DNA from: Candidatus Berkelbacteria bacterium
GTDB taxonomy: Bacteria; Patescibacteriota; UBA1384; VFKW01
Length of the DNA stretch: 45,458 nucleotides
Reading direction: 5' to 3'
NCBI GenBank assembly: GCA_009885355.1
Contig: VFKW01000035.1
Location: 1-45,458, forward strand
Shown here piece by piece: positions 6,858 to 8,900 of this stretch. The notes below the pieces were generated by a model. The model did no database searches, was not told where the DNA came from, and saw only the letters and a list, made by a program, of their open reading frames with translations. Every line of letters starts with the position of its first letter. The first letter of the stretch is position 1. Position numbers and translations under genes: made by a program.

Positions 6858-7124
6858 CTATCGTGGCTTTGTGATTAAAAACGCCGCCACCACCGAAAGC
6901 ACCGCGGCTATCAATCCTAAAAACATTGCAATATACATATTTGTTTGGATTTTGCTTTTAGCCAGTGGATTTCGTCCGATTGCTTCCAATCCTCGTCCGG
7001 CCATCCAGGCCATCCCAAGAGCTGAGCCCAAAATTCCCAATCCCGAAGCGATGCCGGCTGAAATATATTTCACAGATCCATATGTACTACTGCCTGAAAA
7101 TGTCGCCGCTCCGGCCAGCCGCAT
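6858..7124 (-). other. Subunit-c-like hairpin segment of the 680-aa ORF (possible internally initiated 88-aa product)
   Basis: ..[68 protein letters not shown] shows a Gly-rich helix 1, an R-N-P loop (canonical RQP) and a hydrophobic helix 2. I hand-translated 6858-6989 to confirm. ATG 7124 is the only in-frame ATG upstream of helix 1. It has only a weak AGGA 6 nt upstream, whereas neighbouring genes have GGAGG-type sites. Confidence 0.75.
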
Positions 7125-8900
7125 CGGCTGTCCTGTCACTTCAAATGTATTACTCACTCCATTCATCCCTGGCGAAATCGCGTCGATTACCACATTTTTC
7201 TTCCCAACTGCAATTGTCACTTTTCCAGTCCAAACCCCTTCTTTAAAATCATTGATCGCCGTTGGCACCATCGTGTTTGTCGAATCTCGTAGAGCGACTT
7301 GATCTTTAAAGTCGATAACGATATTCCCGGATACGTCTTTGGCAGTGACTTTTACGTCAAAGGCCGTGCCTGCTTTTTTTGGTCCTTTTATTTCCTCAAA
7401 AATGAAATACCCTGCGCTCGATGGTTTTGATGAAATAGTTACTTCAACAGCTTTTTTAACTGCCGCCTGGGTCGCCTCGATACTCAGTTTGCCATTTCCT
7501 GGAGTATCCTTCAAAACCAATTCGTTATTATTGCCGCTATCTGTCATCAATTCGCCAATAGCACTATTATCAATCGTCCATTTAAAATTCACTTCAGTAA
7601 TGGCAAAGTTATATTTATCATAAGCTGTGGCTGTTAAAAAATGTCTCGAATTCACATTTCCCTGAATCACGTAAGGTGTCACAATTACATGATCCAAAAC
7701 ACCTTGTCCGACCAATTTTTTCGGGTACTGTTTGACAAAGTCTTTCAAATCAGTCAAATCCCAGTTTTTCGCATCCGTTCCACCCCCGGCGCCATCGCCT
7801 AAGCCGCCCCCTGTGCCTGCGCCAGTCCCGTTGGCTCCGCCGCTTCCGGTGCCGGTCCCGCTTCCATTTCCGCTGCCGCCGCCGCCAACTAGGTCGGCGT
7901 CTATCTCTTCGTCGCTCATCACTGAAACTGACGCCATTGCTCCGATTGAGCCGGATTGCGCTTTTATTGTATTTGTAAAACTTGCTACTACTGTTCCAGC
8001 CGTGAAGATGCCATTTGAATCAATCGTCCCGCCTCCGTTTAATACGGACCAAGTAACCAATCCCATTGGCGCCGGATTGTTATATATGTCATATCCGGCT
8101 GCTTGGAATACCTGCTGGGCTCCTTTTGGAATTACAGACAAAATCGGATTGATTTGGATATGGTGCAGTGAGCCGCTAAAGGCATTTCCATAATAATTAA
8201 TCGGCGGTGCCAAGCCTTCAGTCAAAGATGCCGTCACCGTATAAGTACCGATCTTCGTGCCTAATTTTAAATTAGTCGATTTCATCCCATTAACATCTGT
8301 CATTCCGCCATTTGAGGATAATTGATAACCAGTCGCTCCTGGTGGGAAAGAAGTTACTTGAAAAATTACTCCCAGATTTTGAATTGGGTTTGAATACCTA
8401 TCTACCGCTTTTATTACAAAACTACTTCCAAGTGTGTTATTAACAATATTTGAATCAGCTCCAGCTCCGATCGAGCGCATATAAATCTGGCTTGAATCCG
8501 GTAATACCATAAATGCCATACTGGTTCCAGGCATGATAATAGGTGCGTTGGCATTAACGGCAGTTGCTGTAATCGTTACTGAATTGGATGCTTTCGTGAT
8601 TCTGACATTGCCTGAGTATGATCCGTTTTCCATCCATACTCTATTTGGACTTATTGTGCTCGGCGAATTTGAATCACTCAGATAAACCCAATTTGTAAAA
8701 CCTGGCTCAGCTGGATTTACAGTTTCGATGTCAATTGTAAAATAAGTTCCGGCTATCTTAGGCTCTGCTGCCAGATTTGTTACAAAGCTAAAATTACTGC
8801 CTGCTGCTACTGCCGTTTTAAAAAGCAGTAAATTAGACAGCAAAACAGTTAAACAGAAGATAGTGCACACAAACTTATATGCAAATCTTTGGGTTAGCAC
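6858..8900 (-). CDS. Secreted Ig-like-repeat protein ending in an F-type subunit-c-like hairpin (in-frame fusion)
   Basis: An uninterrupted 680-codon frame starting at GTG 8900, preceded by AAGAGGGG. It has an N-terminal signal peptide (..[11 protein letters not shown]). Several modules resemble Big_1/Big_2 Ig-like domains (..[30 protein letters not shown]; ..[21 protein letters not shown]..). A G/S/T/N linker spans about 7776-7888, and the last ~70 aa form a subunit-c hairpin. Confidence 0.8.

Follow-up and report, generated by a model that had tools for sequence, protein, structure and literature searches.

What does an F-type ATPase do when the gene for its rotor subunit encodes a cell-surface protein? 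The question is raised by a gene at 6858..8900 on the minus strand of contig VFKW01000035.1 from Candidatus Berkelbacteria bacterium (assembly GCA_009885355.1), the 45,458-nucleotide (nt) stretch that we analysed whole and refer to as the window. The gene occupies the atpE position of an F1Fo operon and encodes a signal peptide, a predicted ectodomain of immunoglobulin (Ig)-like domains and, at its C terminus, a helical hairpin that derives from subunit c. We find that this ectodomain–c fusion is conserved, that its hairpin lacks the ion-binding carboxylate of subunit c, and that its operon retains F1 and the peripheral stalk with no recognizable gene for subunit a.

The fusion is encoded in a single open frame running from GTG 8900 to TAG 6858 (680 codons, 680 amino acids (aa); mature protein of around 67 kDa), with GAGGGG 5 nt ahead of the GTG. 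The ATG of the atpF-like gene follows 18 nt past the stop and is preceded by GGAGGGG. Frame, start signal and spacing are all as the initial annotation of this DNA had described them. At 38% G+C, the chance probability of an open frame so long is about 4e-20. Separately, the 203-nt leader of the fusion gene contains an inverted repeat of 21 nt (window 8960-9106), whose arms at 8963-8983 and 9074-9094 are 86% complementary and separated by 90 nt; the predicted RNA fold energy of 8963-9094 is ordinary compared with shuffled sequence (z = -0.37), and a scan for promoters and terminators gave only background-level hits.

The encoded protein was read with Pfam and with an AlphaFold2 monomer model built on 27 homologs (mean predicted local distance difference test (pLDDT) score of 80). 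It begins with a predicted Sec-type signal peptide (residues 1-33; 8802..8900), which has an 18-residue hydrophobic core, a hydropathy peak at residues 6-34, a modelled helix at 2-24 and a cleavage-like site between AVAA and GS, and which is found in all 27 homologs. The model then places five β-sandwich domains, consistent with the four to five Ig-like modules, Gly-rich linker and c-type hairpin proposed initially: D1 (35-133; 8502..8798), D2 (140-241; 8178..8483), D3 (247-328; 7917..8162), D4 (402-492; 7425..7697) and the membrane-nearest D5 (498-589; 7134..7409). Between D3 and D4 lies a Gly/Ser/Thr-rich hinge (332-380; 7761..7907) that is predicted to be disordered (pLDDT below 50), is variable in alignment A1 (columns 380-560) and differs in length among relatives. 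A flexible linker (590-608; 7077..7133; pLDDT below 50 at 594-608) joins D5 to the hairpin (609-680; 6861..7076; modelled helices 608-643 and 645-677). The modules had been proposed to be Big_1/Big_2-like: D2 matches PF02369 (Big_1) over residues 155-229 with 33.1 bits, slightly below the cut-off of 34.9, and PF02368 has no match in the fusion protein. Foldseek searches with the ectodomain returned only generic tandem Ig, MG-domain and S-layer arrays, with template modelling scores normalized to the query of at most 0.23.

The C terminus scores 30.1 bits against PF00137 (ATP-synt_C) over residues 613-676 and so passes the curated threshold of 24 bits, in line with its initial assignment to subunit c. 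NCBIfam subunit-c equivalog models also match this end, below their cut-offs (best 43.4 bits versus 71; 48.2 bits versus 71 for the 88-aa C-terminal piece alone). Both termini of subunit c face the outer side of the membrane, and the N-out topology proposed for the fusion agrees with its signal peptide and positively charged loop. Identity to close relatives climbs from 0.40 in the distal D1, the least conserved domain, to 0.76 in D5 and the hairpin, a gradient that fits a conserved base with a variable exposed tip.

Searching 5.8 billion proteins recovered 26 further full-length homologs of 655-818 aa and 31-66% identity, and in all 27 proteins the signal peptide, Ig-like domains, linker and hairpin follow one another in the same order. 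One cluster of homologs carries the label Candidatus Howlettbacteria and the annotation 'hypothetical protein', and two members are labelled 'subunit c' by JGI. In a scan of one genome per GTDB species, the full-length fusion was found in 22 loci labelled CPR2, Berkelbacteria, 'Saccharibacteria' and Patescibacteria group, along with a few evidently mislabelled metagenome-assembled genomes (MAGs). The initial annotation had noted that orthologs encoding the two parts as separate genes would count against a fusion; the parts are joined throughout these proteins and loci, the only broken copies being those in L019 (frameshifts) and L024 (a masked run of N). The stretch 6858-8900 is thus one real, conserved gene; we refer to this group of proteins as the Ig-c family.

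The hairpin aligns end to end with subunit c of Bacillus PS3 (1wu0/7wem; E of around 2e-6, phmmer against the PDB), and opposite the ion-binding Glu56 of that protein it has Leu663 (TTG; 6912..6914). This column holds Leu, Ile, Val or Phe in 27 of 27 family members, and helix 2 has no Asp or Glu in any of them; E639, near the loop, is not the ion site and is shared with canonical c subunits. To place this change among c subunits at large, we ran a hairpin profile (A2) against 1.84 billion representative proteins, which gave 605 matches, 150 of which were re-aligned with the 27 members. Among the listed matches that cover the column, short and multi-hairpin c subunits carry Glu (one Asp) in the column, the multi-hairpin proteins having Glu or Asp in at least one hairpin except in P0155 and P0184, and the long, N-extended single-hairpin proteins (186-2672 aa) all have Leu, Ile, Val or Phe. 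Around ten short matches (70-126 aa) have Leu, Ile, Val, Phe or Thr there, and those that we read are truncated or mis-started extended proteins.

What the family has kept is the cytoplasmic loop. Arg643-Asn644-Pro645 (6966..6974), which we take to be the R-Q/N-P loop by which c touches γ and ε, lies within an EAIGRNP motif that is invariant across the 27 Ig-c proteins, and the same three residues are invariant in the Microgenomates-type proteins described below. The Gly/Ala-rich character of the first (inner) helix is also retained. By sequence, then, the hairpin is a c homolog without its defining carboxylate and is not to be classed as a working proteolipid. The initial annotation had treated it as an ordinary, functioning c subunit, which does not fit a carboxylate missing from every member and an operon without atpB. 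A carboxylate-free ring can neither drive, nor be driven by, the flow of H+ or Na+ through subunit a.

Subunit a was sought in the 45-kb window and in 10 kb on either side of 45 related loci, 809 kb in all. Neither phmmer with an E. coli subunit a sequence and a subunit a from the candidate phyla radiation (CPR), nor tblastn, nor a search for the essential-Arg motif, found a subunit a in these 809 kb, and PF00119 had no match among the window open reading frames (ORFs) or in the annotated neighbourhoods of three distant loci. As a positive control, the E. coli query found a 247-aa PF00119 gene (4.6e-20) containing FRLFGNVFAG at L046, directly preceding the gene for P0064, the closest canonical c subunit in the hairpin search (75 aa, with Glu). 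No c homolog besides the fusion occurs in the sole visible F1 operon at any of the 45 loci, and the genes upstream of the window's fusion gene, where atpB would sit, encode dockerin- and cohesin-like proteins. One ORF (15050-15535; 161 aa, four transmembrane helices), the sole multi-transmembrane orphan in the window, was considered as a divergent subunit a and rejected: it has no Arg motif, lies on the opposite strand around 6 kb upstream of the fusion gene, and sits beyond the cluster of neighbouring genes.

Subunit a is the exception among the eight F1Fo subunits, the other seven being found in the window on the minus strand. After the fusion gene come a b-like peripheral-stalk subunit (6324..6839; 171 aa), identified from its N-terminal transmembrane helix and long charged helix and from orthologs at the same position, with no match to Pfam ATP-synt_B; δ (OSCP; 5792..6334; PF00213, 1.6e-17); α (3996..5822; 608 aa); γ (3101..3982; PF00231, 2.1e-45); β (1695..3107); and ε (1399..1716; 105 aa), which consists of the β-sandwich only (PF02823 at residues 28-103). 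α and β were assigned by Pfam and sequence. Wherever a related locus has enough sequence, this b-δ-α-γ-β-ε order is again found downstream of the fusion gene. The motifs of α (GDRKTGKT, DDLSK and the Arg-finger SVSRIG) and of β (a 14-residue motif, GGAGVGKT, GERTRE and DELSERE) are intact, and judged by them F1 is catalytically intact. α is extended at both ends, by around 55 aa at the N terminus and by a low-complexity tail of around 70 aa, rich in K/E/P/A, at the C terminus, and its length among relatives runs from around 543 to 798 aa. This tail could serve as a stator tether. Across the Ig-c family ε has 84-105 aa and is without the C-terminal helical domain, the part that inhibits ATP hydrolysis in bacterial enzymes.

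At 18 more loci, the genome scan also revealed other proteins that have the same hairpin at their C terminus. At loci labelled Daviesbacteria, Gottesmanbacteria and Pacebacteria, and in other MAGs (L028-L045 range), these are proteins of around 250-300 aa. Their Microgenomates-type ectodomain of around 170 aa is conserved (motif GPIKxGDxITSSxxxGKGQKA) and has no Pfam match; their hairpin does not match PF00137, its helix 1 is no longer Gly-rich, and its loop AIGRNPLA is invariant. Homology between the Ig-c and Microgenomates-type hairpins is confirmed by profile-profile comparison (hhalign probability of 99%). NHL-propeller proteins of around 500 aa occur at L031 (labelled Wirthbacteria), where the gene at 8756-10249 encodes a 497-aa propeller ending in a carboxylate-free hairpin, and at L036 (labelled Saccharibacteria). 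Giant proteins of 2,571 and 2,589 aa with the same carboxylate-free end are encoded at L017 (4106-11875; labelled CPR3), where NHL repeats were confirmed, and L018 (4958-12673; labelled Saccharibacteria). The gene next to the giant one in L017 encodes a 2,408-aa protein and is followed by an ABC/FtsX pair. Recognizable F1 genes lie downstream at most of the 18 loci, with b- and δ-like ORFs read directly in five; the α-to-ε genes are 5 kb downstream in L018, and L017 has none within 10 kb. No atpB was found in any of the 18 loci within 10 kb on either side. The window gene has the EAIGRNP(L/M/F)A(K/R) loop, the hydrophobic residue at the Glu56 position and the downstream F1 genes by which we recognize ectodomain–c proteins of the CPR, and it is one branch of a CPR-wide architecture in which loop and F1 partners are constant and the extracellular part varies.

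With moderate confidence, we think that the fusion is probably the rotor-ring subunit of an F-type ATPase that is uncoupled from ions and displays surface arms. The Sec signal would export the product, leaving around 560 residues (the five Ig-like domains and the hinge) outside the cell, and the c-type hairpin would insert N-out and loop-in. Hairpins would then oligomerize, as ordinary c subunits do in rings of 8-17 identical copies, into a c-ring seated on the γ/ε foot of F1, with one 58-kDa arm per protomer projecting from the outer face of the ring. The hairpin most likely still forms a ring because it is the sole c homolog in its operon and keeps both the Gly/Ala-rich inner helix and EAIGRNP. 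Lacking the carboxylate, and with no subunit a in the operon, the enzyme would have no means of coupling ATP to a flow of H+ or Na+. Instead it would hydrolyse ATP and pass its torque to, or have it resisted by, an extracellular crown, such that mechanical energy instead of ions would cross the membrane to the cell surface. Ring formation, F1 binding, rotation and work at the surface are what we infer from these features, as is the lack of atpB and a canonical c in the genome as a whole.

As the likeliest use of such a rotor, we put forward, only tentatively, the further step that ATP-driven torque or tension acts on the arms and on surface partners. A broader proposal is equally tentative, namely that several CPR lineages (CPR2/Howlettbacteria-like, Berkelbacteria, the Microgenomates groups Daviesbacteria, Gottesmanbacteria and Pacebacteria, Wirthbacteria and CPR3) have turned an F-type ATP synthase into a rotary motor that is free of an ion path and torques lineage-specific extracellular domains. 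If this is true, Ig arrays, NHL propellers and giant adhesin-like proteins would be parts of a surface motor or winch used for attachment to hosts or movement on them, and these organisms would be unable to make ATP or proton-motive force with their 'ATP synthase'.

Several points weigh against a ring-based surface device. An atpB-atpE pair may lie elsewhere in these genomes of around 1 Mb, as the search for atpB spanned 10 kb on either side of each locus. Subunits b and δ are kept, and the peripheral stalk that they form is anchored through subunit a in known enzymes, so there may be an unrecognized membrane partner. Oligomerization and F1 binding are extrapolated from sequence and from a model of the monomer; ring geometry may differ across the family, given the altered helix 1 of the Microgenomates-type hairpin; and productive mechanical work by the arms is speculative.

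The first of these points leads to the alternative that fares best, although we consider it unlikely: a mixed ring in an ordinary, ion-coupled ATP synthase, in which atpB and a Glu-bearing c are encoded elsewhere in the genome and Ig-c supplies one or a few ring subunits or an accessory. Retention of b and δ suits a stator that contains subunit a and is the observation that most favours this alternative, and the loci were covered for 10 kb on either side only. Rings do tolerate some carboxylate-free hairpins. Our hairpin matched c1 of Acetobacterium woodii (4bem_J), which contributes one carboxylate-free hairpin to a ring otherwise composed of c2/c3, and in many multi-hairpin c proteins among the matches listed the extra hairpins carry Gln, Ser or Gly. 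The hybrid ring of A. woodii (PDB 4bem) thus resembles the present case in having a carboxylate-free hairpin in an F-type rotor ring, and differs in having just one such hairpin per ring, a subunit a, Na+ pumping and no ectodomain. Against a mixed ring stand the 45 of 45 loci at which the fusion is the sole c homolog in the sole visible F1 operon, and its preservation in the atpE slot beside atpF, which suggests the main ring subunit. The closest canonical c relatives, moreover, have atpB-atpE immediately upstream of atpF. L046, the locus of P0064, has the canonical Parcubacteria-type CPR operon atpB-E-F-H-A-G-D-C, its relatives being named Adlerbacteria, Harrisonbacteria, Kaiserbacteria and Paceibacterota, and the named homologs of its subunit a coming from Parcubacteria-type lineages only (best 120). 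That operon shares the b-δ-α-γ-β-ε order with the window, and P0064 has the canonical hairpin closest in sequence, including an 11-residue loop; the L046 operon differs in having atpB and a free-standing 75-aa c with Glu. As these closest relatives are unsplit, a mixed ring would need a split arrangement universally across several class-level lineages.

Slightly less probable still is a static role, in which the hairpin only oligomerizes and holds a surface or S-layer-like protein in the membrane, with F1 sitting idle on it or the ATPase a decaying relic. With the carboxylate and atpB gone the known function is abolished, the ectodomains vary widely among lineages, and the Foldseek matches of the ectodomain include the S-layer proteins Sap, EA1 and SbsC, all of which would suit a static anchor. 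A relic would decay, however, whereas the F1 and stalk genes and their catalytic motifs are intact despite divergence of the fusion protein to 31% identity. The cytoplasmic loop is also the most invariant part of the family, which points to selection on contact with F1 and not on anchoring alone.

We consider it improbable that the ectodomain is a giant leader or co-translated partner that is cleaved off after insertion, or bypassed by an internal start, to give a small c-like proteolipid. Mitochondrial and plastid c subunits are synthesized with N-terminal extensions that are cleaved, the segment between D5 and the hairpin is predicted to be disordered, and the close clade shares a GxPMRIAGA motif at this junction, all compatible with processing. 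Beyond the close clade, though, the linker is conserved neither in length nor in sequence, and the 27-protein alignment shows no family-wide cleavage motif in the linkers. The ectodomain is under purifying selection, with its most conserved domain adjacent to the membrane, and a released hairpin would still be carboxylate-free. As for an internal start, the initial annotation had considered that a free c might be made from ATG 7124 (ATG 7122-7124; Met593), thought to be the only in-frame ATG and to be preceded by a weak AGGA. The upstream signal is indeed just AGGA; the ATG is not the only one, as a second lies at 7166 (Met579). Met593 is replaced by Ala in L006 and L012 and is also missing from distant members, and the 50 codons ahead of helix 1 contain neither ATG nor GTG nor TTG in L013 and L022. 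With neither the Met nor the Shine–Dalgarno sequence conserved, and with some relatives lacking any start codon there, we rejected a free c made in this way. Finally, although the window is a single MAG contig and the L019 gene is broken by two frameshifts, we reject as next to impossible an artefact in which a frameshift, missed stop or chimeric assembly merged a surface-protein gene with atpE: the same architecture recurs in more than 40 independent assemblies (NCBI, JGI, ENA and Logan), a missed stop is implausible because the fusion is conserved in 27 proteins and 22 loci, and in L019, a 2015 MAG, the β gene is split too, suggesting errors in that assembly, and the hairpin piece has no start of its own.

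How far would a surface-decorated, ion-uncoupled rotor depart from known systems? Like subunit c of Bacillus PS3 (PDB 1wu0, 6n2y), the hairpin has two helices in around 70 residues, a Gly/Ala-rich first helix and an R-(Q/N)-P loop, and like F-type c in general it is encoded immediately ahead of atpF and has both termini on the outer face; it differs from PS3 c in having Leu for Glu/Asp, a signal peptide, a 560-residue N-terminal ectodomain and no atpB upstream. Mycoplasma F1-like ATPases (types 2 and 3, including the gliding motor of M. mobile) use homologs of α, β and γ, detached from ion translocation, to power or, as proposed, to power a surface function, in organisms that are wall-less or reduced and host-dependent. 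They have no c, b or δ and no rotor ring, whereas here ring, b and δ are kept and the ring itself would bear the surface domain. Accessory proteins of V-ATPase rotors (yeast Voa1; mammalian ATP6AP1/Ac45 and ATP6AP2) place a sizeable domain on the exoplasmic face of the ring; unlike Ig-c, they are separate single-pass proteins, present in one copy per H+-translocating ring and not fused to every protomer. In human rho-0 cells, a stable complex of F1, c-ring and peripheral stalk forms in the absence of subunit a and hydrolyses ATP uncoupled, which makes an a-less complex physically plausible. That vestigial complex is pathological or experimental and contains a normal c, unlike the evolutionarily fixed, ectodomain-bearing form described here. 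None of these precedents unites a fully carboxylate-free ring, an ectodomain on each protomer and an a-less operon.

To our knowledge, every characterized rotary ATPase couples ATP to ions through a c-ring carboxylate and a subunit-a-type stator. A conserved, widespread F-type operon without both, its F1 and stalk intact, would be the first natural ion-uncoupled F-type rotor. Fusion of the ring to extracellular domains would directly and mechanically connect cytoplasmic ATP hydrolysis to the cell surface, and we know of no description of such a connection in bacteria without an outer membrane. No description of ectodomain–c fusions or of carboxylate-free c in the CPR appeared in the literature searched, coverage of which leaves out most subscription journals, and there is a real chance that the family is a new functional class. 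A study of the CPR treats the F-type ATPase simply as a device for ATP synthesis (PMC8672522). The metabolism of CPR/Patescibacteria is routinely reconstructed with 'F-type ATPase present' scored as a source of ATP or proton-motive force, which is probably wrong for the lineages discussed here, and the variable, adhesin-like ectodomains may bear on how these episymbionts engage their hosts.

The ATPase genes sit within a conserved group of cell-surface genes: in at least 15 loci, genes for secreted adhesin-, cohesin- and dockerin-like proteins flank the operon, and their order is conserved. Directly downstream of ε and on the same strand, one or two genes encode a secreted protein of around 390 aa, both in the window (3..1151, minus strand; truncated where the contig stops) and in at least 14 of the other Ig-c loci; examples lie at 17662-18843 in L001, 17717-18910 in L003 and 14294-15397 in L005. 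This family, recognized by comparison of neighbouring genes, has no Pfam match and is marked by a conserved C-terminal YQPADTYTG..YN..PTY and a GWLG motif. An AlphaFold2 model (pLDDT of 83) predicts two β-sandwiches, and in structure comparisons it most resembles adhesins, pilins and a cohesin dyad. Upstream, a cluster of four minus-strand genes (9104..13223), characterized by Pfam, transmembrane prediction and neighbour comparison, encodes an Ig-like protein of 412 aa whose last part is dockerin-like (9104-10342), a WxLIP_PGBD-like protein that has a transmembrane helix at its C terminus (10491-11471) and a pair of membrane proteins resembling cohesins (11638-12666 and 12663-13223). The four-gene set recurs in L001 and L006-L010 and in part in L003, L013, L014 and L019, and in some loci these surface-protein genes lie downstream rather than upstream.

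Farther along the window, a serine recombinase gene lies beside a type I restriction–modification system (HsdM, an AAA_15/AbiEii-like ATPase, HsdS and HsdR) at 21569-29519, with a GIY-YIG gene at 20688-20963 and an integrase-like gene at 34087-35319. Because of these genes, this part of the contig may be mobile.

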